Positions 6,734 through 30,033 of a stretch of DNA of 64,000 bases are shown piece after piece. The first letter of the stretch is position 1, and each line of letters begins with the position of its first letter. The notes below the pieces were generated by a model. It saw only the letters and a list, made by a program, of their open reading frames with translations. It made no database searches and was not told the origin of the DNA. The stretch lies in the IMG/VR virus record IMGVR_UViG_3300021400_000028, positions 106,250 through 170,249 of that record. The stretch is one strand, 5' to 3'. Made by a program: the position numbers and the translations under genes. The stretch is from a virus (Duplodnaviria; Heunggongvirae; Uroviricota; Caudoviricetes).

Positions 6734-7903
6734 TTAAATGTCATTTTCATATCTAACTGTACGAAATGATGGCAAATTTGGAACAGGATGCTCTGTATGA
6801 GTCATTCCAAAATACTTAACAGTTCCCATTTTACCAATTATTTCGTTTATGTGCTCACGATAATATTGTTTTTGTAGTCTATCGCCAATTGGTTTAGCTT
6901 TAAACTCTGTTCCATCTGGCATTGCCATTAAGAAACACATATCTTCTTCACGAAGACCTTCGACAATTCCTTTAATTAAAAATTCTGAATCTTGAAATTC
7001 TTTAATTTTAAGACACCTATTATCACGAGCACCGCATTTATATTCTTTATCTGGATCTTTTATAACGAGGCCTTCGTATCCATTTTCAACAGCCTCATTG
7101 TGCATATCCATTATTTGATCAAGACCTTTTATAAGTCTTTGTTCAATAATTACTAATTTTGAATCAGAAGGACAATTCTTTTTAAACTCATTAAGACGTT
7201 CAACACGTTCTTTAAAAGGAGACTTTTCATCGACAATATCATAACAGTGAAAACAAAGCTCTTTATGATCTTCTTCAAGAGTTTCTTTTCTTACCAGTCC
7301 ACTGATTCTTTGTAGATTTCATAGATGGCGATAAAGTTCTCCATCGAGTATTAGTCCTTCGTTTTCAGTAAGTAATTTTACAATATATGGATCTTGACGA
7401 ATATAAGTTGCTGCTATATCATAATCACCGCCGCCTCTAGATGAGGTATGAACTTCACCATCTCTCATAAATAATAGCATCCTTACTCCATCATGCTTAT
7501 ATGATCCATATCATTCTCTCTCTGTTAATTTTTTATTTTCTTTATCGAGAATCTTACATAACATTGGTTTTAAAGCACCATTTGCATCAGTCTTGGTATC
7601 TCCAAGAATTTCTTTACATTTACCTTCAGTTAGTTCACTTACAGAAAGATCACTAACATCTTTATATCCTTTATCAAGATACTTTTTAAAGTTAGAATTA
7701 AACTCTAGAGTCAATTGTTCATCAATTGATCTTTTAACTTTCCCCTTAAGTATCTCAATATCAGGAGCAATAGTCTTTTTTCCAGTTAATAGACCAGATT
7801 CTCTATGAATAAGATATTTATTATCTACTCATTCTGTTCAAATATGTATATAACGAATTTTATTCTTGGAATCTAATCCAATTGCATGTTTATCTAATTC
7901 CAC
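6734..7903 (-). CDS. ATP-dependent DNA ligase (in-frame TGA read as Trp; start uncertain: TTG near 7714 or GTG near 7903)
   Basis: Track fragments 6734..7111 and 7511..7714 are in the same frame. Motif I YKHDGVRML lies upstream of an in-frame TGA at 7319-7321; a second TGA at 7511-7513. Motif IV EGLVIK and motif V LKIK are in the 3' fragment. Confidence 0.75.
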
Positions 7904-8316
7904 TGTAATATTATATTATTTTTATTTTTAGGAAATTCAATTGGGCATTTAAAAACAATTTTAGTATCTGTTAATTCTAAAACTTCTACTTCTCCGGCTC
8001 TTTCACAATTGAATCTATTTCTATAGCTTACATATAACAAGTTATAATTATTTGGAAACTTATCAAATAGGATACCTTCATAAATAAATAAATTAGTATC
8101 TATATTAATTAATTTAACACCATAAACGGTAATGAACTTGTCATATATAAGATCTCAAAAGAAATCTTCTACTTCAGAACCAATACATATAAAATCACTA
8201 ACTGGTTTTGCCTTAATTTCCATTAACGCTTTCGTTAAATCCTCACTTGTTAATAGTTTAAACTGAACAGGTTCTAATTTGTTTATCTGACCTCGAAGTC
8301 CATTATTTCAATCCAT
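7894..8316 (-). CDS. hypothetical protein (2 in-frame TGA)
   Basis: Starts at an ATG overlapping the dut stop (TAATG); reads MDWNNGLRGQINKLEPVQFKLL... and ends at TAG 7894. Confidence 0.4.
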
Positions 8317-8768
8317 TACTTTCCGGTGCTTCCAAATCCATCAGAGCCTCTATCTGTATTAGAAAGTTCTTCAACGTTATTCCATTCAACTCTTTCGTGC
8401 TTACTAATAACTAATTGAGCAATTCTATCACCATTGTTAATAGTGAATGGTTCAGATGACAAATTAACAAGAATTACGCCCACATTACCTCTATAATCTG
8501 CGTCTATTGTTCCAGGTGTATTAAGTACAGTCACTCCGTGCTTTAATGCAAGACCACTTCTTGGTCTCACCTGTGCTTCATATCCAACAGGAAGTTCTAT
8601 TGATAAGTTTGTAGGAATTAATTTTCTTTCAAGACTTCGAAGAGTTACTGGTTCATCTAAAACAGCACACAAATCACATCCAGCAGCTTGTTTACTCTGA
8701 TATTGAGGAATTACTGCTCTTTCGTCTAATTTTTTAATATTTATCTTCATAAAATCCGTTCCAAACAT
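8316..8768 (-). CDS. dut: dUTP pyrophosphatase
   Basis: All five dUTPase motifs present (AGCDL, RSGLA, GTIDADYRG, RGSDGFGSTG). Confidence 0.9.
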   Translation of the reverse strand: MFGTDFMKINIKKLDERAVIPQYQSKQAAGCDLCAVLDEPVTLRSLERKLIPTNLSIELPVGYEAQVRPRSGLALKHGVTVLNTPGTIDADYRGNVGVILVNLSSEPFTINNGDRIAQLVISKHERVEWNNVEELSNTDRGSDGFGSTGK

Positions 8769-9018
8769 TATTTATTTCTTTAAGTTCATCTTCTGTAATA
8801 GTTGTACCGTTAATATTAGATATTTCTGTAATTAATATAATAGCATCGTCATCATATTCATTGTGCTTTAATCACTTATTCAATAAAATATTCATGACAG
8901 CTTGCCATCTAAATTCTAAAGAAAATAACGGAAGTTCTGCAAAAACACAATTTACATAAGGATCACCTACAGATTTATGTGTTTCTTTAAAGACTTTAAC
9001 ATCTTTAACACGCATCAT
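8734..9018 (-). CDS. hypothetical protein (1 in-frame TGA)
   Basis: Hand translation MMRVKDVKVFKETHK...; ends at a TAA that overlaps the dut start. Confidence 0.35.
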
Positions 9019-9049
9019 TCAGCTGTTAAATTTACTGACTTTTATCATT

Positions 9050-9319
9050 TTAATCATATCTAAATCCCCACGAGTCAAGTCTGTTATTGATACAAAAATC
9101 CCAATTTCTATTTATACAATTTATTTCTTCTAGTGTTAATTTAGATACATGATTATTCGTAAGCAATATGTAATCTGATAAAATTGGTATTACTTCTTTA
9201 GGTGAATATAACCCTATAAAATCATGAAAAATTGGTTCACAATCGAAAATTGGAAGTTCTACAATAAAGTTGAGCACTGTATCAGTCACAGATAAAAGTT
9301 CCTTTTTGATTATTTTCAT
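9050..9319 (-). CDS. hypothetical protein
   Basis: 89-aa ORF ending at TAG followed closely by TAA. Confidence 0.4.
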   Translation of the reverse strand: MKIIKKELLSVTDTVLNFIVELPIFDCEPIFHDFIGLYSPKEVIPILSDYILLTNNHVSKLTLEEINCINRNWDFCINNRLDSWGFRYD

Positions 9320-9320
9320 A

Positions 9321-9349
9321 ACAAAAAAAGGAAGTCTTTTAGACTTCCT
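9321..9349 (-). terminator. rho-independent terminator-like hairpin
   Basis: Perfect stem AGGAAGTCT / AGACTTCCT with a 3-nt loop, followed on the minus strand by a T7 run. Confidence 0.55.
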
Positions 9350-9353
9350 TAAA

Positions 9354-9561
9354 TTATTGTTTTACATATAAAGTACAATGACAAATATTATTTTCACGAT
9401 ATTCTTTACATGGACAAAGACGATCTTCGTGCGTTTCTCCAGGATTCTGACAAGGACATTCTCCGTTATTAAGTTCGCAACGCTTAAGAATTGCATTTAC
9501 CACTTTATCGTTTGGGTTTAATATTCAACCTTCTTTTCTAAGAATCTGTATCATTTTTCCA
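9354..9561 (-). CDS. small Cys-rich protein (putative zinc-binding)
   Basis: Hand translation MIQILRKEGWILNPNDKVVNAILKRCELNNGECPCQNPGETHEDRLCPCKEYRENNICHCTLYVKQ; one in-frame TGA; start overlaps the nrdG 3' end. Confidence 0.3.
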
Positions 9562-10098
9562 AAATAAATCAGTTCTATCATAATATGAACCAGCGTAAGC
9601 ACTCAACTTATTCATTATCCTGCCATTCATATAAAATCTTTGATTGGTATTGGGATTGTTTATAGGTCCAAATTCTGATTTATATGGCCCAATTTTTATA
9701 TAATCAATTTCTGGCATATCAACAGGTATTTTGTCTCGACCTGTATACCAAGCTACTTTTATGTTTTTAAACAATAAAGGACAAAAACGAAAAAGATTAT
9801 ACAGTTCCTCTAAATCAGAATCTCCGCCCATAAAACAAATACAAGTAATTCCTTTATTTTCTGCAACTAAATCGCACAATTTACCTACTCGAAGTGGAGT
9901 TCCTATATCTTTCCATAATTCTTTTGAATGACATTCTGGACAATGATAAGGACAATTAGTTAAATTAATACACAAAGAGATTTCGTCAGGCACTTCTGAG
10001 AAAGTAACCATTGTATTAAGATATTTTAACATCGTTTTCTTTAGTATATGTTCTACCCTTTTGTTCAACCTGTCTTTCTTTGGATCAATTGTCAACAC
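9538..10098 (-). CDS. nrdG: anaerobic ribonucleotide reductase activating protein (radical SAM)
   Basis: Cx3Cx2C cluster CPYHCPEC; lies immediately downstream of nrdD. Confidence 0.75.
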   Translation of the reverse strand: MLTIDPKKDRLNKRVEHILKKTMLKYLNTMVTFSEVPDEISLCINLTNCPYHCPECHSKELWKDIGTPLRVGKLCDLVAENKGITCICFMGGDSDLEELYNLFRFCPLLFKNIKVAWYTGRDKIPVDMPEIDYIKIGPYKSEFGPINNPNTNQRFYMNGRIMNKLSAYAGSYYDRTDLFWKNDTDS

Positions 10099-12190
10099 AA
10101 GTCAAATATCCAATAATTCTTGTCCAATATTTTATATGTTTTGAACCACAATGCGGACATTCTGTTATTGGAGCATTCACTGTATGGTGACAATCCGCAC
10201 ATTCGCTCATAGGAATATTAAATGTGAAGTAATTTGTGCCATTATCTTTAGCAATATCTAGAATTTTAAGATACTGCTCCTTAGAAAGATGCGCATCTAA
10301 ATTGATGTGTGCAGCCTGACCACCGTCTGTAAACTGTGTTATTTCTTTTCCGTGCAATTTTAGTTTATCGAGAACATTAGTATTGTCCCAAGGATTGTAA
10401 AAATAGCAATTATACAAATTTTGATCCTCTGGAACATAATAACCATCCTCTTTATCCCACTGATACAACTTTACAGCCAAATTTTCTCCTGGAATAGCCT
10501 CACTGTTGAAAAGAATTGGTCTTTTCTTATCATGAATTGAGTTCTTTTTATTCTCGTCACGAACAGTGCCAAAAATAGTAGACAAAAAGTGTTTATATTC
10601 CTCATTGTTACCGACTGTTAATCCTAAGAATTTTGCAGCTTCTGAATATCCAATTAAACCAATTGTACTATATAATTTTCGCATATAAATATAACCTGCA
10701 TTTGATGCTGTAAACATTCCTTTGTCTTCAACATCATATAACATTGTTTTGTAAGCAATTTGATATTTATAAACGCGAGAAAGTATATTCTTTAAATATT
10801 CTGGAAATTCCTTATAAAATCTATTAATGTAATCATTAAATGCGTTTGGTTCTGTCTTTGTTTCATTAAATCAATTTTGAATAATTCTATTAAGATTTAA
10901 CGTGATTACATTACAACTACCTGTCATTACACCAGTCATTCCTGTAGTAGAACTAAAGGTATTTTCTGAAATTTCGTTCAAGACTCTACAACATGATGCT
11001 AAACTTGTTGGATTGTCACTATTAAAGCAAAAGAAACTACCACCCTTTGCCCATTCATCTGCACATAGATTTTTATAATCCAAATCAAGATATTCTTTAT
11101 TATTATGAACCAATGCCATTGTAGATACTGGGAATGTAAGAGGTTTAATAAGTCTAAGTTCACGATGGAGTTCCATAAACATTCTTTGAAGAACATCTAT
11201 TGCTTTTCATTCAGGTTTTGTTCCATCTGGATAATAGAAGTCTTCAAATAATGACTTAAAATAAATAGAATCGTAATAAGAAACATTAGAGAATGGAGAA
11301 TTAAAAGATCTGTTGCCAGCTGGTTGATTTACTCCGTAAATAAACTGCTTCATCCCTTTTCTAATGTAATATTTTACATCATGTGGTTCTTCTGTTCCAG
11401 TTGTTACTATTTCGTCCAATCTATTATATCATTCTGCACCAAATTCCTTAATTACATAATAATTTAAAGCAATAAAATAATCACCGACAGCAACAGCGCC
11501 TTTACATTGAGAACTAAGTAAAAATATTAAATTAGTAATCTGTCCACTAAATGATGCAATATCATTCGGCGCACTTGGTGTTACTCCATCTATATTTCCA
11601 ACTCCATCAACCATTAAAGGATATAATGTTACTGCGCAACAATAATATTTTAAAACAGGAGTTGATGCTTCATCGTGTGTATAAATTATATGATTGTCCA
11701 AATCCTTTACGTATTGTTTTGCCACTTCTGGAAACATTTCGTAAAGTTTTTTCTTCATTCGTGCTCTTTGAATTAGTCTATTTCTGGTTTTATAAACCTC
11801 ACCTTCTAGATTTGCTACATTTTTAATAGTAACGTTTGAATTAGCATCTGTTTCAGAAGCAGTAGCAGCATTTGTACCAGAATTAGTATAATTATCCATA
11901 TAATCAATACGCTCTTGTACAAATCTAGATTCTGAATGTTCCTCTTTATATTTTATATAAGCTATTTGAACATCATAATACTTAAATTCACCAAGAGAAT
12001 AAATAATGAACTTTTGAATATCTTCAACAGTTTTATTATCTTCAAACGTTTCAGATGTTGCTTTTAGATAATCTATAAATTCTTCAGGAGCATCCGTTTT
12101 ATATACTGCGTTAAATGCTTTATTTACAGCATTTTTTATCTTATTAAAATCAAATTCTTCTAAATTTCCGTTACGCTTGATTATTTGCAT
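10085..12190 (-). CDS. nrdD: anaerobic ribonucleoside-triphosphate reductase, class III (3 in-frame TGA)
   Basis: Four track ORFs in one frame (10085..10744, 10871..11182, 11207..11419, 11429..12190) are separated only by TGA at 10871, 11207 and 11429. N-terminal ATP-cone MQIIKRNGNLEEFDFNKI; C-terminal Zn ribbon CADCHH...CPHCG and glycyl-radical motif TRIIGYL. Confidence 0.85.
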
Positions 12191-12954
12191 AAAATTTCAT
12201 CATTAAGAATTTGTCCACAAAGATAATTCTTTTCAAATCGATTAAGAATATCCTTGTCATCTTCTGTAATAAGGGAACTAAATGCATTGTAATAGTTAAA
12301 AAGAGAACATTCTTTAGTATCTTCTACATAAAATTTAGAAGAACTATCCATATAAACATTCTCATATGCTTTTAATACTAAATTTGGTGTTATTTTAACC
12401 TTTCCACCTTTAGTATTATAAGAATAAAGCATACTTTTTTCAATTAATTCTCCGAGTTTTTCGTGTCTATCGTCCTTTGAAAATGATTCTGAATCCATTC
12501 TTCTAAATCTGATTTCAGAATCATCAGTCATTTCCATTAAATTTTTGATAGTTTCGTCAAAATCAATAAACTTTGTCTCTGGTTTCAACTCATAATCATT
12601 TAACCATTGAGAATTAAAACAAAATAAATTTTCTGAATTTTTATCCTTATATGCTTTAAAAATCTTATATACAGGCTGTCTCATATCCAGTCCATATACA
12701 AGATTGTATGTTTCTACAAAATCATTTATATGATTTGACATTACTGCTTGTAATCAAACTCTGTTATAAGTAATATCTTCGGAATTATTAGTTAAGGTTA
12801 ATTGATTTGGAAGCTGAACATGACAATAAAATGTATCAGTAAACTTCTTCATTAAATCAATAAACGGTTCACAATATTCCTTTGTTTCAAGATATTCCTT
12901 ACCTTTGATTACCGTTGATTTTCCTTCTAAGAGCTTCCCAATAGTTATTTCCAT
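12181..12954 (-). CDS. hypothetical protein (1 in-frame TGA at 12754)
   Basis: Track ORFs 12181..12741 and 12754..12954 are in the same frame, separated only by TGA. Confidence 0.45.
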
Positions 12955-13003
12955 TATCTAAATTTAAATATTTTTCAAATAATTCCTCATACCTCTCTCC
13001 CTT

Positions 13004-13414
13004 ATATGTATATTCACGTTGCTTATTTATAAGGGAAACTCCATCTCATGTATATTGGTTTCGTTTGGATAACGTTCGATTATTGTTCTTTAAAAGATAT
13101 GCTTCTATTATTCCAGCTTCTTTTTTAGATAATCCGCATGCTAATATCTCACATTTCCATTTTTTACCTATTGTATTTGTAAGCATATCATCCTTATGAT
13201 TAAATGGACGACCCTCCTGCCAGAACTTAGTATCCAATCGGCCTTCTCCTATATAATGGGCAACACCATGTCTACACCATAAATAAATACAATAGTTTCT
13301 ATCCGAATTAAACCAATCTGCATCTCTTTTCTTGAAAATAACATTTAAATCTAGACTTCAGAATTTAACCAAAAATCCGTTTTGATGTCGTTTTCTAATT
13401 TTTGTTACTTTCAT
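13004..13414 (-). CDS. GIY-YIG family endonuclease-like protein (2-3 in-frame TGA)
   Basis: Hand translation contains IYLWCRHGVAHYIGEG (GIY...YIG spacing); free-standing, just upstream of nrdD. Confidence 0.5.
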
Positions 13415-13424
13415 AGTCTAGATA

Positions 13425-13460
13425 TAAAAAGGAGAGGACTGTTTAGTTCAATCCTCTCCT
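13425..13460 (-). terminator. rho-independent terminator-like hairpin
   Basis: AGGAGAGG ... CCTCTCCT stem followed on the minus strand by T5. Confidence 0.5.
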
Positions 13461-13484
13461 ATGTTCCTTAATTAGTTGTTAATA

Positions 13485-14021
13485 TTAGAAGCTAAGTTCG
13501 TTACCAACGAATACATACTTACCGAGTTCTGCATTAACAGAAGGAGTGTACTTAACATGGCAAACAACTTCCTTGTTGTTCTTAACGCGATAAACAACAC
13601 GAATGTCAAGATCGGCTTTTACGTCAACCATAGCTTCCTTAGCAGCCTTAATAGCAGCATCCTTAGTGGCACCTTCACCAGAAAGAGAAGTAATAATCTC
13701 ACCATTATCTACACGATAAACTTCGTAAGTACGCTCAGTAAGAGTACGGCCTTCATTAACAACATTCTCTACAGTATAGGGACGCTCACGGGTATCCTTA
13801 GAACCATTAGCAACAACTACCATGAAACCAACACCGGGAATCTCAGTAAGTTTCTCCTTTTCCATCTGAGCAACAGCAAAAACCTTAAAGTCTTTGTCAG
13901 AAATGGGAGAACCAGCGTTTTTTCAGGAATTAGTCTTATTACGGATAACCTTAAAACCTTCAGCTTCAACAGCAGCCACAGCCTCAGCGTAGCTATACAC
14001 AGAATATTCTTTACGAATCAT
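13485..14021 (-). CDS. hypothetical protein with atypical GC-rich codon usage (1 in-frame TGA at 13923-13925)
   Basis: ATG at 14021 (MIRKEYSVYSYAEAVAAVEAEGFKVIRNKTNSW...) reads through TGA into track ORF 13485..13865. Codons are GCT/GTT/GAA-rich, unlike the neighbouring genes. Confidence 0.5.
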
Positions 14022-14327: not shown

Positions 14328-15389
14328 TTATTCAAATTCAACTTCTTTATCGTAACCAAAAATTTCATAATAGGCTACTCTCTTGAGTAACTGATTAAGT
14401 TCTTTTGTACCTCGTTTTAACTGTGTATCACTTACAGTGTAACAACGAGACCAATAATTAGGAATTGTTTCTACAACACAGACATTACAATTAAGTTTCC
14501 AACCTTGTTCTTTCGTAATTCCGAATTTCTTCATACAGTAATACCAAAGAATAGTAGAATAAACACTAAATTGTCTATAATAATGATAATGGTTAAAGCT
14601 ACCTTCAGACTTCATAAAATTATTGATTGTTTTACCACTTGTCTTCAAATCATTTAGTGTAATGACTTTATTTTCGAAATCTATGGTCCAATTATCAATT
14701 TTTAACTTAAATCTTAATGTTGTACAACGAGTTCCTTTATAAATAACAACAAAATCCATGAACAAAGCATCTTCACAATGAGATTCAATGGGATCTCCAA
14801 AAATATCTTTTGGATGAAGTTTTGCCATAATTTCAGAATTAGCCTGTAAAGACTCAATACATGAATTTACAACATCCCAATCTGCATCATTGAGAATAAT
14901 TTGTTCCTTATTAGATTTTTTGGCTTTTAATTCATTTAAGTTTTTGGAATATTCTTCCCAAGTTGTTTTGATGAAATCAATTTTAGAATCAATTGAATTG
15001 ACATAATAGTCTGCATTTTGAGCAGCGCTCTTAATAGCTGTTTTAATATCCATATTTGGATTTTCTGTAAGATATTTGTCAATCTCATCCATTACAAGAC
15101 CCAACTTTGCTGTAGGTTTGCCAATTTTCGGTGCCAATTCAAATTCTTCTGGTTGAAGTATAACTTCGTGAACAGAACTACCGCGAACGGTACTTGTAGA
15201 ACTAAATTTTGGATTGGATTTAAATAATCCTGGAGAACCACCCTCTTCTGGATTAATATACTTTAATTTTGAATTACTAACAAATTTACTATACTTAGTA
15301 GAGAAGTAAACCTCATCACTAATCGCTTCTCTATGTACAGAATTAAAGTTAGGTACTATTTGAAAGTCTTTAAATTTTATCTTTTCCAT
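14328..15389 (-). CDS. putative PD-(D/E)xK-type nuclease
   Basis: 353 aa; candidate D...(D/E)xK arrangement (ALFMDF ... ITLNDLKTSGK); weak. Confidence 0.35.
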   Translation of the reverse strand: MEKIKFKDFQIVPNFNSVHREAISDEVYFSTKYSKFVSNSKLKYINPEEGGSPGLFKSNPKFSSTSTVRGSSVHEVILQPEEFELAPKIGKPTAKLGLVMDEIDKYLTENPNMDIKTAIKSAAQNADYYVNSIDSKIDFIKTTWEEYSKNLNELKAKKSNKEQIILNDADWDVVNSCIESLQANSEIMAKLHPKDIFGDPIESHCEDALFMDFVVIYKGTRCTTLRFKLKIDNWTIDFENKVITLNDLKTSGKTINNFMKSEGSFNHYHYYRQFSVYSTILWYYCMKKFGITKEQGWKLNCNVCVVETIPNYWSRCYTVSDTQLKRGTKELNQLLKRVAYYEIFGYDKEVEFE

Positions 15390-15723
15390 CTTCTAAAATT
15401 TTATTCATCTCTTTAATTAATTCGTCTATATAATAACTGCCATTACAATTATTTAAACGAACTACTTTATTTGTTGTTTTATCTAAACCAACAATATTTT
15501 CTTCTTTTTCCTGCATTGAGAATGTGGTTCTACCTTTAACATTGTCCATAATTATTGCGTTTAAAATATCATTAATGGTTCCGTTTAAAAGTAAATATTC
15601 AATACCGGTTGTTCCTAATATATCATAATCATAATTAATATCCAATTTTGCAAGAATATTCCATTCAGTATTATTAATATTAGGATTTACGATTGCTAAT
15701 GCATCTCTGAAAAAATCTTCCAT
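15370..15723 (-). CDS. hypothetical protein
   Basis: 117-aa ORF. Confidence 0.4.
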   Translation of the reverse strand: MEDFFRDALAIVNPNINNTEWNILAKLDINYDYDILGTTGIEYLLLNGTINDILNAIIMDNVKGRTTFSMQEKEENIVGLDKTTNKVVRLNNCNGSYYIDELIKEMNKILEDGKDKI

Positions 15724-16535: not shown

Positions 16536-16708
16536 TCATAAGAGTACTTGCAAGCAACATTGGCAGATCTGGTTCTTCTCCGTCTTTCATTTCGGGCTCT
16601 ACTGACATCTGAAGTTCGAGATCTCCATTTGTTTCCGTAAAATACATTGCAATGATTCTTTTACCCGATTTAAACGTTACAACACATTCATTATTTACAG
16701 TTTCCATA

Positions 16709-19005: not shown

Positions 19006-19413
19006 TATTAATTTATAAAACATTTTCTTGTCCATAATTACAGCTTCACCAACAGTAACTATATTTGTTTCACGAGGTTCTTGTTTTGCTCAAATAATAC
19101 AAAATTCCTCAGGATTTACAGTAGATTCTTCTCTTATTTTAAAGTAAGATGGGATGGACTGTGTTTTTTTAAGTTGGATCTTTACAGGAAGCTTATTACC
19201 CTTATCTATTAAGTCAACTTTATTATTATCAACCGATTTTGATTCACTACGAGCTGTAACTACGTTATTGAAACCAAGTTCACGTAATTCTTTAGCTATT
19301 TTAACTTCATAAGCATTTCCTTTATTTTTAGAATATGCAGCACTACGTTTCTTCTTCGGTTTCGATTGTTTCTCAGAGACATCCGAATTCTTCTTTTGCT
19401 CACTTTTCTTCAT
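19006..19413 (-). CDS. Holliday-junction resolvase, archaeal Hjc-like (1 in-frame TGA at 19090)
   Basis: KGNAYEVKIAKELRELGFNNVVTARSESKSVDNNKVDLID matches the Hjc pattern KGxxxERxLxxxLxxxGF...DLIA; ends at TAG just before the next start. Confidence 0.55.
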
Positions 19414-20404: not shown

Positions 20405-20413
20405 GATATTCTA

Positions 20414-21127: not shown

Positions 21128-21135
21128 TTAAAGAA

Positions 21136-21696
21136 TTAAAAGGGAAGATCATCATAAGTATCTTCATCCTCTTTAAGCATTTCTGCCATATCATCTTCTA
21201 CTTTACTCTGATCCATAGCTTCAAAAGAAGCCTCTTCTTCTTTAATACTTTCAGAGTCTGCATCATCTTCTACTTTTACTGGAATTAGTTTAAAAACACC
21301 GTCTTTAACTTCACCAGTCTTATCTATAAATTCTTCAAAATTAAACATAGAACCAAACTTTAATAGTGTAGTTCTCTGTTGCCCACGAAAAGAAATGGTT
21401 TTACTTTTTGTAAGTTTTGTTCCATCTGCTCCATCAGTAAATATTTCAGATTTACTTATAATAGGATATGTTTCAGTTGGACTTTCATTTCAATAATTAA
21501 CTGCGATTCTATCTCCAGCAACTGCATTAAGCTTTGTTATTGCATCATCTGTTAATTGCAGTTTATTATCACAAACTTCCAAAGCATATGTTCCAGATAC
21601 TGTATTTTTTACAGTATTCTTCTTTTCCGTGCTAGTAACTTTAAGGTTACTTACTTTTTGAGTCTGTTCATCAAAATCAAACGAAATACTAAGCAT
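21136..21696 (-). CDS. second protein ending in an SSB-like acidic tail ...DTYDDLPF (1 in-frame TGA at 21490)
   Basis: Track ORFs 21490..21696 and 21136..21348 are in the same frame, split by TGA; highly acidic C-terminal half. Confidence 0.4.
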
Positions 21697-22366
21697 CGTA
21701 TTCTGCTATTTTATCAATAACAAATTGCAAATCATTAGGAATATAATCGTCATCAAAACATCCCATTGGACTCTTTGCTGTAGTAGTACCATCTGAATGT
21801 GTTTGAAACATATATTTAGGTTTGTCTTCCTCATCTCTCTGAATTTCAGTAAAGAATACATAGGTAAATAAACCCTCTACGGTAATAGAATTATCGATCA
21901 TTTTCCCCAACGTTTTAATCTTGAGCTGAGGTTCATCAGGAGTCCCAATATTTTCACTATGACAAGTCATGATGACGTTTAAATCATCTCTCATCATAAT
22001 TCCAGCTTTTAAAACACTATAAAATTTCTGAGCAATATCACTAAACTTCTGAAAACCTTTCTCCTGAGCGCGGTCCATATATTCAAATCCCATTAAATAT
22101 TGTGCGTCTTCCACAACAACATTTTTAATTTCAGGACGTTTAGTGTTTACATAATTTAATATAGAGGAAATGGTAGATACATTACTTGTATTAATATAAT
22201 TACCACTGGGATTTTCTTTATTTCATACAATATACTTACTACGTCATCCTTTAAAAGGAAGTGGTTTTGAAGCAACATTAATAATAAAAGTTTCGCTAGG
22301 ATTAAGAGTACGAATACTAGAACTCTTTCCGGTTCCACTCGCACCCACAATAGCTATAAGATTTGC
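21689..22366 (-). CDS. Sak4-like RecA-family ATPase (2 in-frame TGA)
   Basis: Hand translation upstream of track ORF 21689..22114 gives MANLIAIVGASGTGKSS (Walker A); sits between the SSB-like genes and the helicase. Confidence 0.55.
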
Positions 22367-22368
22367 CA

Positions 22369-23481
22369 TTAAAAACTAAATGTTAAAGGTTGTTTAGTTT
22401 CTACAGTGTCTTCTGTAGTAACCTCATCTTCTTGTAACGCAGTAGTTAAACTGAGATACTTTTTAAAGTCTTTAATTTCATTAACTTTAGGAAATTGATT
22501 CCAATAACCGATTTCTCCAAAGAAATTTACAGGTACAGCTTTTTCTGATTCGCCCTGTCTATTTTTTATCAATTGTAAACTTCTATATCTTCCACGAAGA
22601 CCATCAAAGTCAGAAGAACCATTATCTACAATTATAGGAAACTCTTTATGTGTTTTTAATTTAAATTTAAGAGGATAATAAATGCCAATGCATACTTCTG
22701 AATCTTGAAATGGAGCGCTTGTATCAGAAATATCTTCGGATGAACATTCTGTTAACTCAGCTTTACGTCTATCCATGCTTGATGAATTTCGATTCTCCTG
22801 CATAAGCATTACAAAAGATATATTACACTGATTCCTAAGAGTAACTGCATATTTTGATACTAAATCAATTTCCTCTTTCTTAGAACGACCTTCTATTGGA
22901 GTAGTTAAATTTAAATGATCAACTACAACAATTATTATTTGTTCTGGATCGTTTTTTGTATAAAGTGTTCTTCTTCCATCAACAGATGGATGAAATTTTC
23001 CATTTTCTTCTAAAAGGCCTTTAACTTTTGAATAGAAAAACTTTGATGTTAATGCGGAATCATATATTATCAATTTTGAATCAATAGATTCTAATCATTT
23101 TCTACCACTAATTACATATTGATAATCTTCATCATCAAGTATGTTACTTCAAGACATTAATCTTGTAAATGGTATAATTTTTCCATATTCTTCAAAAATA
23201 TAGAGACATAAAAGTTTTGCAAGTAATAATTCCGTTGATAATTCTAGACTAAAATAACATAGTTTGATGTTTTTATCAGGATAATCCTTTAATGGGCGAT
23301 ATATATAAGAATAAAGAGCATATGCGCTTTTTCCGCTTCCAGAAACACCAAATATAAGCGTATAAACTGGTTGAATGCCTCCAGTATAATTATCCATTTT
23401 AGGAATACCTGTTTTTAAACCAATGTTTTTACCTTTTCTACCGCGATCTATTTTTTCGTAAAGTAAATCAACGTTAGTCAT
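22369..23481 (-). CDS. DnaB-family replicative helicase (helicase domain only; in-frame TGA)
   Basis: Track ORFs 23149..23481 (Walker A GVSGSGKSA) and 22369..23073 (VVVDHLNLTT, RecA-like C-terminus) are in the same frame. Confidence 0.7.
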
Positions 23482-24070
23482 CAGTTAATATTTCTACAGC
23501 TATGTTGGATTCTAATCCGTTATCCTTAATATACTCTAATTCCTGTCATTTATGTGATACAACAAATTCAACTATACCATAATTAATTTGATTATGTTCT
23601 TTACCTCATGCAAGAAGATCCATTACTTTTTTGTGTGTTTCTGGATTGTGTTTTATTGCAGAAGAATATGCAAAGAAAAATTCATCTAAAGTATCATATT
23701 TCTTAGCAATATTCTTTAACGGATAAAGCTTTGATCCATTTGTCATAAATGGAGGATAAGCATCAAACAATTCTTGGCCCATTTTACCTGAATTTTTTAA
23801 TCAAGACTTTAAGAAATTTTTATTAAATTCAATGTTATTTGGGTCATATGTTGAAGGATTATAATCTTTGTGAATCAGTCCCTTATTTTTAAGTGATTCA
23901 AATAAATTACGTAATTGTGTACTACCGCCGTTTGAAAACCATTTTGAGAAGAATTCTGGATGTCCTTCCTCATCACGAGCCAAAAACGTTAAATATACAA
24001 GTAATAATTCATTTGCATCAATGTTATAAGTAATTAATAAATTTAATATTGTATTTATATCCAATTTCAA
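23478..24070 (-). CDS. hypothetical replication-module protein (1 in-frame TGA at 23801)
   Basis: Track ORF 23801..24070 continues through TGA to a TAA that overlaps the helicase ATG. Confidence 0.4.
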
Positions 24071-24337
24071 AGGTGTTTAAAGTTCTTCTCAAACACCGTT
24101 TATTTATATCTCCTTTACAGGATATTTAATCGGAATATAGTTCCATCTGAATAGGTGTACAGTCGATTGCTACACGTAATAAATCTTGAAGACGTTTTGA
24201 ATCAACATAACTATGAATAAAATCACAAATTATGGCTACACTGTTTTCAACATCATTTGCCAGTAAATCGACAACCTTTTTATTAGACAAATTGTTCCAA
24301 ATATATTCAATTTGTCCATCTGTCAAACGAATACTCA

Positions 24338-25522
24338 TTAAAATCTAAATTTTGTATTTATGATATTTTCTCTTTCTCTTGTTTCAATAGTTTCTCCATT
24401 TAATACCTTTTCAAGTTGCTCTTCGTTAATCGTAATAACTTTAGAAGTATTAGAATTTTGAAACCATTGATATTCTTGAGTTCCACGTAGAATTAAAGTA
24501 AAAATTTCTGCAATTTTACCTTCTTCAAAACGTATTGCTCTGCCAACTGTTTGAACCTTTTTAATTTTGGAAGAATCTGTATTTAATATAACTTCTAGAT
24601 TAACTCCGTGTAAATCCAATCCAGTATTACATGCTTTAGACGAATGTAATACACCAGATTCTGCATTATTAAAAGCCTCAATTATTTCAGCATTCTCTTT
24701 TTGTTTTTGTTTAGAATGAACGACATAACCAAATCCAAAAGATTCTGCCTGTTTAATTGTTGCAGAAAAGGTCATTGCTTTGCTATTTGGTCTTGCTTCA
24801 AGTATTTTCTTTGCAATTTCAAGTTTTTTTGGATGATTTTGAATAAACATTTTTCTGTCACGCATTGCCTTGTTTCATTTTTGTGCAACGCCCATAGTTG
24901 TTTTAGAATCCATCCCATGCTTTTTGGCATAAATGTTACAAAACTTTTTATCAGTTGCACAAGACATTGCATCACTAAAAACAAATCCAAAATAAGCAAA
25001 ACATTGATTAAATATTCTTGTTTTTTCAAGATATTCTGTTAAATCAACATCCAATAATACACAATACTCTCTATGTGGAGCAACTCATCCATTTTGTTCA
25101 GCTTCTATTATTGTGATTTCATCACATACTGGAGCAAATTTCTGAATATATGTTTCTTTACCATCCAAACGTTCGAATGTTCCAGTCAATCCAAGAATAT
25201 TGTTGTAATTAACGCATTCAAACACTTTACGGAAAGTGTCGGATGGAGTTAGGTGTATTTCATCGATTATAAGCAAATCACATGTTCAGTTTAGTTTTAC
25301 AACAGAATTGATTACTTCTACACGAGCGTTTTGTAATAATTGACGTTCTTCTAATTGATCGATTCATTGATCCTTTAGAATTTTAGTTGGAACCACAATT
25401 AATATACTTGCTTCTTCATTTCGTCTAACAAAAGCATCAGTTAAATTAAGTCCTACACGAGTTTTACCTACCCGAATCCGGTACAAGCTACAATAGTTGC
25501 TGCTCCACCGGATTCTAATCAT
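24338..25522 (-). CDS. SF2 DEAH-type helicase (several in-frame TGA)
   Basis: Motif I RVGKT, Ia ILIVVPTKILKDQW, II IIDEIH, III LGLTGT, V SSKACNTGLD, VI QTVGRAIR across same-frame track fragments 24338..24865 and 25085..25276. Confidence 0.7.
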
Positions 25523-25556
25523 CGCTTTAAGCAAAGTTTTTGTCTTTCATCACGTG

Positions 25557-27458
25557 TTACCATAGTGATAATTGCTTTTTATCCATTTTTTCAATTATTT
25601 TATATGCTTCTTGAACATAATATTGATAATTGATACATCTTTTATTGATAGGAATCTCATCAAATTTGTTATAAATTGTAACTGGGGATGCTGCACATAA
25701 AGCAACAGGACTACCTATTTTTTCTCCATTTATAACTTTTTGTTTAACCAGCATTTTACCGTTTGTAGACATATAATATCTGTTTATATGTGCTACTTTT
25801 TCTCCACCATAAAAAACCGTAAATTCTTTTGCTACTTTTTGAAAAGTACAAAACTTTTTAATATCGTTACAAGAACGAATAGTATCTTCTGGACTAATAC
25901 CTTCTACAAAGTATTTATTAAGAGCTTCTGGTATAATTAATGGAGCCAAACCCTTTCCTAAAATTGGTTCTTGAATAAACAATCCTTTTGTTTTAATAAG
26001 TTTTGGATCATGTGACTCACTTCAACCTTTCTTTACTCCTATATAATCATTAACTGCATACTGATAAAATCTTTCAAACGTATCCTCTTCCAATCCAATC
26101 TTAGTAACACCTTCTCACCATTTACAAATGTCTAAAAGTTTTTGATAATCTTTGTTATCATGTAAAACAAATATGCCATCTGTATTAGTATTAATAATTC
26201 TAGCGCCAGCTTCAACAAATGCTTCAGCTAACATAAGAATTATTAATTGGCCATTAATTCTTAATGTAAGAACGGATTCTGGAGAATATACTCAAGAATA
26301 TGGAGATTGAAGATTTCCAGTTAAACCATTTAATGCAAGTTTTAGAGTTTCATTTTTAACTTTATCGCCATTCTTTTTAGCGATAACTCTTTCCTCTCTA
26401 ATACTGCGATACACATCAAGAAACTCTGGACCTAAATGTTTTGGATATAAACCTCACTCAATAATGATACTAGGATACATACTTGTAACATCTCAATCTC
26501 TTAAAGATTGATCTGGTCCAGGTTCAAAGATTTCAGGAGAATTAACTGAATGCATTCCTCCAAGAGAAAAGTTATGTTCAACACCACCAAGTTCAAAAGA
26601 AATATGAAACTTATTTTCTTTCTTTTTCTTTGCTTCTTTCTCGAGATCTATAGTAGTGTTCTTAACTTGCTCGAAGAAATCTTGCATCTTTTTGGTTTTG
26701 AATTGAATACAAGGGAAAATAATATCTTTAAATGATATTACATTGCAAGGACTTCGTAAATCTTTAATCTGAAATCATTGTAATCCTGTTGCTTCAAGAT
26801 ACTTCTTTTTCAGAATTTCCATTCCAAGATTTACACCATCTTTATTTAATGCCGATATGTGATATTCATCTTCAATAGCCAATCTAAGTTCTATGTCTTT
26901 TTTAGATCTATTTAGAAGCTCTTCGGTTGAATCAATATCATTATTATTATAATTTTTTACATTTGGAATTTCATCCTTTGGTAAAGTTGAATCGAAATCA
27001 CCATCGTATTCTTCTACATTTGAATATTCCATTGTTACTTGAAGCGCTTTTAAACTAGGACGAAGCTTTTGAGACCATCGCATTGCTAATAAATCTAAAT
27101 CATCATATAAATTTGCATATTTATATTGACTTCAAGAAGCGGATGTTTCAGATGTAATGATTTTATCACTAAATCGTTTAAGTTCAGATGTAATTTCTCA
27201 ATAAGGTAATAGAATTAATCGCTTATAATTAATAATAATGTAAGAGATTAATACTTTATCATAATGGATTGTATTATATCCGCAAAAAAATATACGTTTA
27301 TTAAGAAACAACTTAACTATTTCTGGCATATCGTTTCTTATCTCGGATATTTGATAAAACCTTCTATTACCAGATTCAGTATTTTTTACAGCAATACTAA
27401 AGAAATTTGGAAAAGATTCAACATCATAAACAAATACAGGTTTATTTCTTATCAGCAT
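25557..27458 (-). CDS. family B DNA polymerase with N-terminal 3'-5' exonuclease domain (>=6 in-frame TGA; 1-2 apparent frameshifts)
   Basis: Exo I VYDVESF and Exo II GYNTIHYD in 27198..27458. PolB motif A DVTSMYPSII, motif B-like KLALNGLTGNL and motif C-like NTNTDGIFV found by hand translation between 26100 and 26500. Track pieces 27198.., 26775.., 26493.. and 25557.. share a frame, but continuity near 26280 needs a +1 shift at a GGG run. Confidence 0.55.
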
Positions 27459-28290
27459 ACTTATTTACAAGATTCCAACCCTTATATTGTGCGACTCGTT
27501 CAATCTTATGCTGCAAATCTGTCCATTTCTTAATATGATACTCAAGATCATTATCCAACATAAGAAGAATCTTGTCACGCAATAATTTAAGAGTGCTAGA
27601 AGGAACTGTAGATACTTTTGCTCTAGATTCAAGATTTAAAAGATTACGCAATTCATCGTAGGATAGTCCAGAAGGTGTAATTCTAAAAAATCCACTATCA
27701 ATAAACAACCTTTCTTTCATCACTTGCAACCAAGGTCTAAGCTTACCACGAGCGTCAAATTCAGTTAAATCCTTTTTATCTGTATCAGTAAGCCAAACTC
27801 CGAGAGACATAATAAATTCATTAGAAATAAGTCGTCGATTAATCGGTTCAAGAGCATCAAGACAGGCCTTTACAAGATCACCAATAGTAAGATTTTCATA
27901 ATCTTTTGGAAGATTGTTAAACATAAGAGTAATAGAATCCTCATTTGTTACTTGATTATGCTCTTTAAACTTATTAATGTAGTCAAGGATGTCTCGATTT
28001 GTTCTAAAAACATCAATAGCTAAATCATGCTGGATATATCTATGTAACAATTCAGCATTACAAGCTGTATAAATTTTATTAATGTTTTTACGAACTTCAT
28101 ATTTACCAAATTTATAATTGGTTGTACGATAAAGCATGTCTAATGAATGCGTATAAGCTTTTTGAAGTTCATCGACACTCATATCAATTAATCGAACTTC
28201 GTTATTGTTCTTATTGATCCAAACTCATGAATTAATATCATTGTTTCTCTTCTCAATTGCTTGAGACAGCTTTTCTCCTAAATCACTCAT
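27442..28290 (-). CDS. hypothetical protein (1 in-frame TGA)
   Basis: Track ORF 27442..28182 extends upstream through TGA to an ATG at ~28290. Confidence 0.4.
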
Positions 28291-28571
28291 ATCTTTAAAA
28301 TTTATAATTTGTTGTTTTAACAATTTCTTTATCTTTTATAAAATTTAAAAGGTAACAACTTGTATATCTATACAATTCTTTGTTACCAGTTGTTCTTTGA
28401 AAATATTCGTCACCAGCATCAACATATTCACATTCTATAAAACCAGTATCTCCAATTTCTGGTTCGTCAATTTTTCAATTTGGAAGAATTGTAGTTGTAA
28501 TATATCTCATTAAACTATTATTGGGTTCATCCAAATTTTGAAAAACCAATAGTTTGTAAAAATCTTCTTGC

Positions 28572-29084
28572 TTAGCGACTAGTTTCGCATGTATTGTTAC
28601 TTTCATTTTCAATTAAATCCAATGGATTCTGTTCATTTTTAACAGCCTCCATTGCTCTACATGCAATATGATCAATTTCATTAATCTTTGGAAGAATATA
28701 TGCAAGTGTCTTCATATCAGAAATAGAAAATGCAGTTTCTGCAATTTTATTTAATTTATCTGCATATTTATCTTCAAGTTCTGCAAGTTTTTCAAATATT
28801 TCTTGTGGAGATTCAAACTCAATATTTAATGCCGGAATTGTAAATTCAGGAATATTTTCAAAAGAATTCATTAAATAAGATACTAAACATGCTTTTGATT
28901 TTTCACAGCATTTGTACATCTTTTTAAAGAACTTTTTGTAATTCATCATTCCATGCATATAAAAATAAAACTTAGCAGAACTAATGAAACTCAATTTATT
29001 TATTTCAAACTGAATCAGATCAATGAATAAATCATATAAATCTTTATTCATTCCTTCCTTTTTTACTTCTTCTTTTAGTTTCAT
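28572..29084 (-). CDS. hypothetical protein
   Basis: 170-aa ORF. Confidence 0.4.
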   Translation of the reverse strand: MKLKEEVKKEGMNKDLYDLFIDLIQFEINKLSFISSAKFYFYMHGMMNYKKFFKKMYKCCEKSKACLVSYLMNSFENIPEFTIPALNIEFESPQEIFEKLAELEDKYADKLNKIAETAFSISDMKTLAYILPKINEIDHIACRAMEAVKNEQNPLDLIENESNNTCETSR

Positions 29085-29460
29085 TTGCTTCAGTTATTGA
29101 TATATCGTATAGAACACCATCCTTATAATAAGAATGTAATTCTTCATCTGATTCCACAATGTTACTATCTATTAAATGATAATATTTTAAGCCCTTACTA
29201 TCATCTCATCCGAATTGTTCTATTAAATATCACATTCTTCAATTTTATAATAATTTTTGTGGAAGTTAGTATTAAATTGTGTTTCAAATAAATCCATTAA
29301 TAATGTTGATACTTCAAACTCTCTATCCCCAATGTAAATTCTAACAGGAAATACAGAATCTGTGTTAAGCCACTTCCAAATATCATCGTCATTAAATTGA
29401 ATACAATTAGAATCAACCCAACTATGTACTTCAGATAACAAGAAATGTAACTCTCCAGTA

Positions 29461-30033
29461 TTAGATTTGTCCAAGAGAGTAAGTAATTTTTCCATTTTCC
29501 TGTCTAACATTAAATCCATCGGATCGTCGTGTTTCAGATTCGGGTACCAATGATTCCCCAATCTCTTTACTGTTATCAGTATATTCATCTTTTGGTAAAT
29601 TTAAACAATTTGCTGCAAACTGACACAATTCATCAACTTTATTATTCATGTCATTATTTGCATGTCCTTTGGTTCATAACATGGTGACTTTATGAAATTG
29701 AAGATAATCTAATAGTTCAAATCAAAGATCTAAATTCTTTTTACTATAGTCTTTATCTTCAAATCATTTTTGAACTCAACCTTCATTAATAGAATTAACT
29801 ACATATTGTGAATCAGAAGTAATTTCAAGTTCCGCTGGTTCTTTAAAATAACGCAATGTTTCTAATATAGCTCGTAATTCCATACGATTATTTGTTGTAT
29901 TAGTAAATCCGCCACATAGTTCTTGAATTATGTTTTCAGATTCATCACAGATTATACTTCCCCAACCCCCTTTTGAAGAAATTCCAACATGTCCTTTAAG
30001 ACTACCATCTGTTCAACATTTATACTTCTTCAT
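29461..30033 (-). CDS. rnhA: ribonuclease HI (6 in-frame TGA, all at conserved Trp positions)
   Basis: Hand translation MKKYKCWTDGS...TNNRMELRA...TDSQYVVNSINEGWVQKWFED...LDLWFELL...HKVTMLWTKGH...NNDMN aligns with E. coli RnhA, including TQWIHNW, DLW and WEWVKGH. Confidence 0.85.

Follow-up and report, generated by a model that had tools for sequence, protein, structure and literature searches.

In-frame TGA codons, most likely read as Trp, in the replication genes of a rumen phage with an intron-split tRNA(UCA) gene

Genes in a 64,000-nucleotide stretch of phage DNA (the window) look fragmented when read with the standard code, and the gene calls at loci L011 and L012 are broken up in this way; the question is how these genes are read and whether phage or host supplies the means. 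The window is contained, letter for letter, in a 170,316-bp crAss-like phage scaffold from sheep rumen, 84 kb of which we read. GC content is low (31%), and the minus strand carries all genes, as well as the split tRNA gene with its intron and the hairpin described below.

TGA as a sense codon in the replication genes

We found in-frame TGA in 20 of the 34 ORFs between 6734 and 30033. Re-calling genes with TGA as sense, a check proposed in the preliminary description, raised the coverage of this region by ORFs of 100 codons or more from 59.8% to 91.0%, compared with 61.2% for the control in which TAG was sense. The relatives carry TGA at 97 and Trp at 25 of the 162 positions aligned to window TGAs; one is TAA, none is Gly, and the 39 with neither TGA nor Trp fall in variable columns. 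Conversely, the relatives have TGA 20 times where the window has TGG; in relatives of about 65% identity, TGA recurs at matching codons and also interchanges with TGG. Pfam domains run across the TGAs in a single frame (RNase_H, residues 3-140; DnaB_C, 21-323; DNA_ligase_A_M, 1-188; Helicase_C; Toprim), so that they are restored by read-through rather than by frameshifts.

RNase HI (29461-30033; Pfam RNase_H, E=1.8e-25) has TGA at 30013, 29776, 29764, 29722 and 29674, in the contexts KCwTDGS, GwVQKw, DLw and MLwTKGH, where w marks TGA. In alignments with PDB structures, TGA residues 86, 90 and 104 fall on conserved Trp positions of both 3h08 and E. coli RNase HI; residue 120 is likewise opposite a Trp of the E. 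coli enzyme, and residue 7 is opposite Tyr or Phe. The TGAs described earlier at GWVQKW, DLW and MLWTKGH are thus real, but the gene has five rather than six, the sixth Trp being TGG. The family B DNA polymerase (PolB; 25557-27458) has eight TGAs; at six of them the relatives have TGA or Trp. The SF2 helicase (24338-25522; ResIII and Helicase_C domains) has four, and the DnaB-like helicase (22369-23481; DnaB_C) and the AAA_24 ATPase (21689-22369) have two each, the positions in these last two genes being TGA or TGG in relatives. The interruption of PolB and both helicases had been reported correctly, whereas the RNA ligase (4406-5821), said to be split as well, has no TGA.

The Toprim primase (19343-20404; Toprim domain) has in-frame TGA as described, at five positions instead of three; relatives show TGA or Trp at three of the five. 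NrdD, the anaerobic ribonucleotide reductase (10016-12190; precomputed Pfam matches ATP-cone and NRDD), has the three TGAs already recorded (11429, 11207 and 10871) and one more at 10085; it is colinear with PDB 4coi over residues 109-712 (E=4e-56), and its last TGA aligns to Phe. In the ATP-dependent DNA ligase (6734-7903; 389 aa in the gene call of the source scaffold), Pfam DNA_ligase_A_M (E=3.5e-22) spans TGAs at 7838-7840, 7829-7831, 7511-7513 and 7319-7321, and one precedes motif I as noted before (TEREwYGSYKHDG). Hence, relatives, solved RNase H structures and Pfam domains agree that TGA is read as sense, most likely as Trp, in the conserved replication genes.

A split tRNA(UCA) gene

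No UCA-anticodon suppressor had been recognised in this DNA. ARAGORN in intron mode (-i and -ps) finds a tRNA(UCA) gene carrying Trp identity elements at 35730-36017, split by a 213-nt group I intron (35769-35981) between U34 and C35. The 5' exon (35982-36017) ends in GGTCTT at U34, the intron begins with TAGCTAG and ends with TAAG, and the 3' exon (35730-35768) runs from CAAAACC to ATAGGGT, with discriminator G73 and one trailing base. The intron boundaries are exact, because a related phage has an allele without the intron (L009, 2499-2573), in which the exons are contiguous, and BLAST joins both flanks between 2534 and 2535 of that locus. The joined exons form a 75-nt tRNA(tca) with a clean cloverleaf in default ARAGORN. 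Compared with the homologue in L008, 13 stem pairs are compensatory, and the anticodon loop CTTCAAA, A1-U72 and G73 are invariant and the same in E. coli tRNA-Trp. Since the Rfam tRNA model misses even the intron-less homologues, the tRNA call is based on ARAGORN and this covariation.

The intron scores 33.1 bits against Rfam RF00028 (E=1.5e-6), less than the 50 required by the gathering score. RNAfold gives helices P2, P3, P4, P6, P8 and P9, and P1 can be read as exon CUU plus intron UA pairing with UGGAG. A predicted terminator-like hairpin (35676-35697; CCTCCA-TCACAAG-TGGAGG, then TTT) separates the tRNA from the gene that follows. Downstream of the suppressor, the first recoded gene encodes 150 aa (34886-35338) and has three TGAs and no TGG; its orthologues in relatives have six TGA versus two TGG.

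TGA could be sense and the split gene nevertheless a dead copy, with UGA suppressed by a phage tRNA in the other 86 kb, by a host tRNA or by a near-cognate tRNA-Trp(CCA). Splicing is predicted from sequence, the RF00028 score is sub-threshold, and a second intact suppressor or code-change genes could sit outside the 84 kb searched. Moreover, recoded phages in published surveys often have no detected suppressor (PMC7886860; bioRxiv 10.1101/2021.08.26.457843), and a mechanism based on tRNA-Trp with a 4-bp anticodon stem has been proposed in bacteria (PMC13092985). However, both exons are intact and, compared with the intron-less allele, keep all 21 stem pairs, the anticodon loop and the identity bases; the intron retains its group I core, the U before the 5' splice site and the terminal G; the gene occupies the same position as intact suppressors in two relatives; and we found no other tRNA(UCA) or tRNA-Trp in the 84 kb. 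We therefore consider a dead copy improbable, and a functional split tRNA(UCA) remains our preferred decoder.

Mosaic recoding and the code of the host

The preliminary description had TGA recoded throughout the core genes of 6734-30033. This holds for the replication core, but the block at 14328-18998 (exonuclease-like and MazG-like genes) within that range has no TGA and 31 TGG; in genes g77-g79 the relatives have 0 TGA versus 32 TGG. A second TGA-free block of seven genes (30213-34893; GroEL, Band_7 and AAA ATPase among them) has 9 TGG, and its orthologues in relatives likewise avoid TGA. A third block (89-6721; ThyX, polynucleotide kinase and RNA ligase) has 41 TGG and a single TGA, which probably lies upstream of the true start. 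Overall, TGA versus TGG is 52 versus 34 in the recoded blocks and 1 versus 81 in the TGA-free blocks (Fisher p=4e-19); orthologues in relatives (45-75% amino acid identity) give 168 versus 54 and 3 versus 69, respectively (p=4e-29). Hence, recoding is mosaic, and the partition into recoded and TGA-free genes is conserved in relatives. The two kinds of block are interleaved on one strand, which fits poorly with a plain early-left, late-right order. Immediately past the window, the large gene of the convergent block also belongs to the recoded subset.

At least one accessory gene terminates at TGA: the 139-aa gene g19a (52364-52783) stops at TGA 52364-52366, and the next gene (51785-52360) begins two codons later in the same frame. 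If the two are fused, 120 of 120 homologues among the matches listed align from Met142 onwards only, beginning at residues 1-3 of their own sequence, and the upstream part matches positions 1-122 of the 136 of the phrog_10066 profile. The earlier statement that TAA and TAG terminate genes and TGA is sense thus needs this exception. In another accessory gene, g6 (60604-61044; phrog_5706, E=5.8e-47, residues 1-142), one TGA is sense (61003-61005), being residue 14, inside the homologous region.

These features bear on whether the host itself reads UGA as sense, by code 4 (Mollicutes-like, Trp) or code 25 (Absconditabacteria/Gracilibacteria, Gly), with the phage mirroring it. The low GC content and the abundance of TGA in essential genes, including the DNA polymerase, would agree with such a host, and code-25 hosts do have phages (bioRxiv 10.1101/2021.08.26.457843). 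However, no window TGA aligns to Gly, and about 90% of the genes of phages of recoded hosts have in-frame TGA (bioRxiv 10.1101/2021.08.26.457843), whereas more than half of the genes here have none and use TGG. In addition to the conserved TGA avoidance in three blocks and the TGA end of g19a, the phage carries its own tRNA(UCA), the matches of PolB and the DnaB-like helicase are all to crAss-like or other Bacteroidota phages, and the bacterial relatives of one island gene occur only in rumen Bacteroidales MAGs. A host with a reassigned code is hence very unlikely. The preliminary description held that the window alone could not separate the two cases, but the suppressor, the TGA-free genes and the TGA gene end help to decide and, with the Bacteroidota-linked relatives, favor a recoded phage of a standard-code host, most likely a Bacteroidales bacterium.

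That the TGAs are not Trp codons but selenocysteine codons, programmed stops or frameshift sites, assembly errors or signs of pseudogenisation has next to no probability: ARAGORN labels any UCA anticodon 'SeC' and genes are broken on the standard-code track, but the region is 100% identical in three independent assemblies, the codons are kept or swapped with TGG in relatives at about 65% identity, the frames are unshifted through Pfam domains, the TGAs stand at Trp or aromatic rather than Cys/Sec positions, the short variable arm and normal 7/5 acceptor/T arm of the tRNA set it apart from tRNA-Sec, and 52 TGAs over about 20 genes make SECIS-dependent insertion implausible.

Our favored explanation, which we regard as probable, is that the phage-borne split tRNA(UCA) reads UGA as Trp in a subset of genes within a standard-code Bacteroidales host. 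The subset would include the conserved DNA-replication and nucleotide-metabolism core, and the decoder would most likely be the phage's own tRNA-Trp-like suppressor, presumably charged with Trp. Because the intron splits the anticodon at 34/35, the RNA would have to self-splice before it could read UGA. Host release factor 2 would still recognise UGA, so that genes needing to function without the suppressor (presumably early, host-takeover, anti-defence and accessory genes) would avoid TGA, selection would maintain this avoidance, and at least one of them would retain TGA as its stop. Neither a release factor nor TrpRS is among the precomputed Pfam hits over the 84 kb.

Relation to known recoding and tRNA introns

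[quoted passage not shown] 2021, PMC7886860; Zeta phage Lera, PMC12386605). The present phage shares their lineage (its replication proteins, PolB included, are 45-47% identical to those of crAss-like Suoliviridae, and PolB is 65-68% identical to IMG/VR relatives), many tRNAs, group I introns, TGA aligned to Trp, partial recoding and a phage tRNA(UCA), and its 170 kb falls within the Zeta range of 145-192 kb. Assignment to one of these groups is tentative, because the window has no TerL, portal or MCP. Published crAss-like recoding is 'mostly in late genes', whereas in this phage recoding extends over the entire replication core (polymerase, primase, helicases, ligase, NrdD and RNase H), TGA-free blocks are interleaved among the replication genes, and an intron splits the suppressor gene. 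Code-4 gut phage clades such as Agate, Jade and Sapphire likewise combine standard-code hosts (as predicted here), suppressor tRNAs and partial recoding (26-71% of genes), for which a role as translational timer has been proposed; a suppressor is detectable in only about 35% of code-4 genomes (Borges et al., bioRxiv 10.1101/2021.08.26.457843). Their replication genes are usually standard-coded and their structural and lysis genes recoded, unlike the recoded replication genes here. In genetic code 4 of Mollicutes, UGA is also Trp via a tRNA with a UCA anticodon, but that reassignment is genome-wide in a cell without RF2; here it is phage-borne and gene-selective, with TGA still at one gene end.

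The unusual part is that the predicted suppressor gene is interrupted in its anticodon by an intron of predicted self-splicing type; we found no report of an intron-split suppressor gene in the literature searched. Group I (IC3-type) introns of bacterial and plastid tRNA genes lie classically in tRNA-Leu(UAA), at position 34/35. The window intron shares this site, the 5' exon context CUU, the terminal G and the predicted form of a small, ORF-less ribozyme, and its GAGCC-P2-GUGGA-P3 layout presumably resembles that of the Anabaena intron. It differs in interrupting a phage nonsense-suppressor tRNA gene and in its sub-threshold RF00028 score. A 2014 review placed every phage group I intron known by then in a protein-coding gene (PMC3984707). 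In Patescibacteria, group I introns in the anticodon loop hide tRNA genes from standard annotation (PMC13011429), and recovery there, as here, used an intron-mode tRNA search, RF00028 and intron-less homologues; the gene here is instead a phage suppressor split at 34/35, with splicing predicted. An anticodon intron together with a divergent T-loop and D-loop is one concrete way in which a suppressor may escape detection. The window also holds a tRNA-Leu(UAA) gene split at the classical site (61686-62411).

TGA as a sense codon in the core genes

We found in-frame TGA in 20 of the 34 minus-strand ORFs of 6734-30033 when TAA and TAG were the sole stops: five each in RNase H and the primase, four each in NrdD, the ligase and the SF2 helicase, eight in the polymerase and two in the DnaB-like helicase. 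Reading TGA as sense raised the coverage of this interval by ORFs of at least 100 codons from 59.8% to 91.0%, the gain in coding density that the preliminary description had proposed to look for, and a TAG-sense control gave 61.2%. Pfam domains run across the TGAs in one frame (RNase_H residues 3-140, DnaB_C 21-323, DNA_ligase_A_M 1-188, Helicase_C and Toprim). Hence, these genes are restored by read-through and not by frameshifts, which had been named as the outcome that would speak against TGA as a sense codon.

With TGA masked, we aligned the proteins of the window to those of six IMG/VR relatives (polymerase 65-68% identity) and one named crAss-like genome. At the 162 positions opposite the TGAs of the window, the relatives have TGA 97 times, Trp 25 times, another residue 39 times, TAA once and Gly never; conversely, TGG of the window stands opposite TGA in relatives 20 times. 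That TGA and TGG replace each other freely in relatives at a given codon is as expected of synonymous Trp codons. On alignment with solved structures of RNase HI, the TGAs in RNase H coincide with Trp of the Chlorobaculum and/or E. coli enzyme in four of five cases and with Tyr/Phe in the fifth, so that in-frame TGA occupies the Trp positions of homologues in conserved genes. The in-frame TGAs are therefore confirmed, and the earlier proposal that TGA is sense in the core genes, most likely Trp, is supported and sharpened.

Other explanations were considered. Translation as Gly (code 25) is excluded by the complete lack of Gly among the 162 aligned positions and by the many genes that are free of TGA. 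Selenocysteine would call for a tRNA with a long variable arm and 8/5 or 9/4 acceptor/T stems, and for TGA at Cys/Sec positions; in the tRNA(UCA) candidate of the window the stems are 7/5 and the variable region is 4 nt long, and the TGAs lie on Trp/aromatic positions, which excludes it. Frameshifting and assembly error were also rejected.

Some details of the preliminary description needed correction. RNase H has five TGAs and one TGG, not six TGAs, and the RNA ligase (4406-5821), which had been reported as split by TGA, contains none. The three TGAs located in NrdD (10871, 11207 and 11429) are confirmed, among four in total. TGA had been said to be read as sense throughout 6734-30033; this holds for the 20 ORFs that carry it and fails for the block 14328-18998, which is TGA-free.

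The window has 31% GC with a steady negative GC skew, and all its genes and tRNAs lie on the minus strand. It matches exactly positions 60991-124990 of a 170,316-bp scaffold in ENA assembly ERZ1756080, and the identical sequence (100%) is present in two further assemblies of sheep-rumen data. The DNA polymerase is 45-47% identical to crAss-like Suoliviridae polymerases, and the matches of the DnaB-like helicase are limited to crAss-like and other Bacteroidota phages, the latter being Bacteroides phages DAC15 and DAC17 and Flavobacterium and Cellulophaga phages. The window contains 11 genes for tRNAs or tRNA-like molecules and two group I introns; a relative contains one group I intron. Genomes of the ‘Zeta’ crAss-like group range from 145 to 192 kb (Yutin et al., PMC7886860). 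In its 170-kb size, its tRNA number and its group I introns the phage is consistent with this group, as it is in the similarity of its replication module. Since the window and its 10-kb extensions contain no terminase/TerL, portal, capsid/MCP or giant RNA polymerase block, membership of the Zeta group is what we infer from these features. TGA-to-Trp recoding has also been described for the Zeta phage Lera (PMC12386605), and Borges et al. reported the same recoding in other gut phage clades, with a detectable suppressor in only ~35% of code-4 genomes (bioRxiv 10.1101/2021.08.26.457843). Recoding itself is ordinary for this lineage, and the phage is one more rumen member of a known phenomenon.

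Mosaic use of TGA

We found that recoding is confined to a subset of genes and that the rest are compatible with the standard code. Three recoded blocks (34886-35338, 19343-30033 and 6734-14021) hold 52 TGA and 34 TGG codons; three TGA-free blocks hold 1 TGA and 81 TGG (Fisher p=4e-19). The latter comprise 30213-34893 (GroEL, Band_7 and AAA ATPase), 14328-18998 (exonuclease-like and MazG-like) and 89-6721 (ThyX, polynucleotide kinase and RNA ligase). In relatives at 45-75% amino-acid identity, TGA and TGG number 168 and 54 in the orthologues of recoded genes, and 3 and 69 in those of TGA-free genes (p=4e-29). Hence, the partition does not merely reflect recent gene acquisition. Moreover, TGA and TGG interchange readily in the recoded set and hardly in the TGA-free set, which argues for selection against TGA in the latter.

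In the window, which does not reach the structural block, a concentration of recoding in late (structural or lysis) genes, with replication genes in standard code, was not found; the replication genes are heavily recoded. Compared with published TGA-recoded phages, the replication core here lies on the recoded side, and the TGA-free blocks are interleaved and maintained by selection. This split bears on the debated idea that recoding serves as an expression timer. It also means that the genome must be annotated with table 4 in some blocks and with table 11 in others.

A convergent reverse-strand gene just beyond the window encodes more than 1457 aa and has 13 TGAs. Hence, recoding is not confined to replication genes. 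This gene found no match in a PHROGs search; it matches weakly, in support of synteny only, gp27 of the crAss-like phage cr4_1, a large ‘exonuclease’ gene with which the reverse block of that phage begins.

Throughout the accessory region (36-64 kb), taking TGA as sense adds almost nothing to ORF coverage, and most TGAs precede a likely true start or stand close to the end of an ORF, just ahead of it; in the gene at 60604-61044, a TGA lies within the homologous region. We found that the ORF at 51785-52783 is two genes with the TGA at 52364-52366 as their boundary. Among the matches listed, 120 of 120 homologues begin at Met142. The upstream gene (g19a, 139 aa, 52364-52783) matches a phage family of 136 positions, and the downstream gene (g19b, 51785-52360) starts two codons after this TGA in the same frame. 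A phage database search with the whole ORF gave no match. If the suppressor is active, read-through would yield a fusion of the two proteins alongside the separate products.

The tRNA(UCA) gene and its group I intron

By allowing introns and lowering the threshold in ARAGORN, we found a tRNA(UCA) gene, c[35730,36017], whose anticodon is interrupted by a 213-nt insert (exons 35982-36017 and 35730-35768, intron 35769-35981, minus strand). The preliminary description had recognised no UCA suppressor among the tRNA genes. Default searches of the window (ARAGORN default; Rfam) likewise gave no UCA anticodon, ARAGORN -i without -ps missed the gene, and Rfam at gathering thresholds detected neither the tRNA(UCA) nor the introns. 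The intron aligns to the Rfam group I model RF00028 with the conserved AGACUA and AAGAUAUAGUC core (local E=1.5e-6), at 33.1 bits against a gathering score of 50.

A related phage, L009, has an uninterrupted 75-nt tRNA(UCA) in synteny, upstream of the same AAA ATPase and almost identical to the exons of the window; by BLAST, the two flanks of the insert join at its adjacent bases 2534|2535. Hence, the intron boundaries are exact: U34 is the last base of the 5' exon, G the last base of the intron and C35 the first base of the 3' exon. The junctions (...GGTCTT|TAGC...TAAG|CAAAACC) are those of a group I intron. From the sequence, a P1 helix would be formed by exon CUU plus intron UA pairing with UGGAG at intron bases 23-27, with the splice site at the customary U·G wobble, and RNAfold gave helices P2, P3, P4, P6, P8 and P9.

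Default ARAGORN recognises a clean tRNA in the joined exons. Relative to the tRNA(UCA) of another related phage, L008, 13 of 21 stem pairs are altered on both sides with pairing kept, and there is no change in the anticodon loop (CUUCAAA), in A1-U72 or in discriminator G73. In bacterial tRNA-Trp, A1-U72 and G73 serve as identity elements. At the tertiary pair 19:56, the window has G:C where both relatives have C:G. Because MAFFT with RNAalifold misaligned the three suppressor tRNAs, we used a structure-guided alignment to count the stem pairs. Even with a cut-off of E<=10, the Rfam tRNA model missed the intron-less homologues; hence, this suppressor family is hard to detect even without an intron. 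The phage thus carries its own gene for a putative suppressor with anticodon UCA, split by an intron.

A terminator-like hairpin (35676-35697) follows the gene. Two other assemblies of the same phage both begin inside the intron (position 1 at window ~35894 and ~35790); these independent breaks may stem from a population in which phages with and without the intron coexist, or from assembler confusion over an intron sequence that is repeated. A tRNA-like gene lies 87 nt upstream of the suppressor gene (36105-36182, minus strand); its acceptor, D and T arms are good, and its anticodon arm allows only a 6- or 8-base loop. ARAGORN gives a 4-base anticodon, ‘taag’. The gene was not found in L009; a decayed tRNA-Leu and a tRNA akin to frameshift suppressors are two possible readings of it. 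A divergent tRNA-like element at 39156-39235 (minus strand; Rfam tRNA 34.7 bits, partial tmRNA match 24 bits) was missed by ARAGORN and has an oversized D-loop and an indistinct anticodon arm.

We found a second intron-split tRNA with ARAGORN (exons 62377-62411 and 61686-61737, intron 61738-62376, minus strand). Re-spliced without its 639-nt intron, which follows U34 and ends with G, it is a clean tRNA-Leu(UAA) with discriminator A73. The ARAGORN call of Ser(UGA) was rejected on the basis of A73, the perfect AGGGA/TCCCT stem, the intron end at G and the clean default call after re-splicing. This intron scores 29 bits with RF00028 (E=2.9e-5), lacks an endonuclease ORF and resembles the 213-nt intron in core motifs only. 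[quoted passage not shown]

In the relative L005 (IMG/VR 3300021256_000461, 6134-7555), the SF2 helicase orthologue is split by a 1.4-kb insertion, which holds a group I intron at 7315-7527 (RF00028 29.4 bits) that is 73% identical to the tRNA(UCA) intron over 86 nt. On this sequence likeness, both tRNA genes and protein-coding genes of this clade seem to be targets between which the intron family moves. Just past the window start, a DUF2201 (VWA-like) gene lies in two pieces around a LAGLIDADG endonuclease ORF (window 1-75 and 10911-13182 of L013, a locus reaching past this start). The interruption is probably another intron or an intein, and the LAGLIDADG ORF has 3 in-frame TGAs.

According to a 2014 review, the phage group I introns then known were all in protein-coding genes (PMC3984707), and a 2026 paper reported group I introns that hide tRNA genes in Patescibacteria (PMC13011429). 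The tRNA introns of the window show group I invasion of phage tRNA genes and, if true, would be its first case. The searched literature held no report of a phage suppressor tRNA split by an intron, an absence in one library and not proof of novelty. A suppressor gene split by a group I intron also sets this phage apart from published TGA-recoded phages, and the split suppressor together with the conserved mosaic is modestly novel.

An intron in the anticodon offers a testable reason why suppressors are missed in most TGA-recoded phages and, if true, intron-split and divergent suppressors could account for part of the ~60-65% of recoded phages without a known one. Searches of public collections for further intron-split suppressors found none or were too unspecific. 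IMG/VR scans for the 3' exon, the split anticodon arm and the intact arm returned L009 alone. A gapped pattern in metagenome contigs was too unspecific, and when its 120 listed matches were re-analysed, no split tRNA(UCA) was among them. With an 18-mer from the intron core, 16 phage group I introns were recovered, all unrelated and all outside tRNA(UCA) genes.

Probable host, proposed code switch and accessory cargo

All the related phages have Bacteroidota as host phylum. On the indirect evidence of these relatives, of two rumen Bacteroidales MAGs that alone among bacterial genomes carry a relative of an island gene (g19b, below), of the conserved TGA-free genes, of the gene end at TGA and of the phage-borne suppressor, we favor a host with the standard code, most likely a rumen Bacteroidales. 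Precomputed Pfam hits, which cover 84 kb of the 170-kb scaffold, include no release factor and no Trp-tRNA synthetase.

In such a host, the TGA-free genes could be translated immediately, from the start of infection. Transcription of the suppressor tRNA would take place in the tRNA region, which immediately precedes the recoded genes, and the tRNA would have to self-splice before competing with release factor 2; once spliced, it would allow the recoded replication and later genes to be made. Splicing, charging, timing and host are all inferred here. Because the only suppressor seen is split in its anticodon, translation of the recoded genes would depend on group I self-splicing, which would place an RNA-catalysed step upstream of the code switch; that a ribozyme gates the switch in this way is a tentative idea that we consider rather unlikely. 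Self-splicing requires a guanosine cofactor and, if the gating is true, this requirement would add a delay or a metabolic checkpoint.

A polynucleotide kinase/phosphatase lies close to the RNA ligase, with one small ORF between them (2879-5821, minus strand); both genes are TGA-free. The pair resembles the tRNA repair pair of the T4 type, and its lack of TGA fits a need for early action against host anticodon nucleases.

In the accessory region, a GC-rich island (51000-56000, minus strand; 38-45% GC vs ~30% elsewhere) includes a WDGH-domain gene and the two genes separated by the TGA at 52364-52366. It also carries, at 52796-53779 (minus strand), a homologue of the Thoeris inhibitor Tad3 (Pfam PF25185, E=8.6e-20). 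Among GTDB species genomes, g19b has only two relatives, both rumen Bacteroidales MAGs. Unusual cargo elsewhere in the window, all on the minus strand, includes a full-length GroEL-like chaperonin (30814-32394), an adenylosuccinate-synthetase-like gene (49082-50221) and a nucleoside 2-deoxyribosyltransferase (45196-45654), which ends at TGA with a TAA three codons later.
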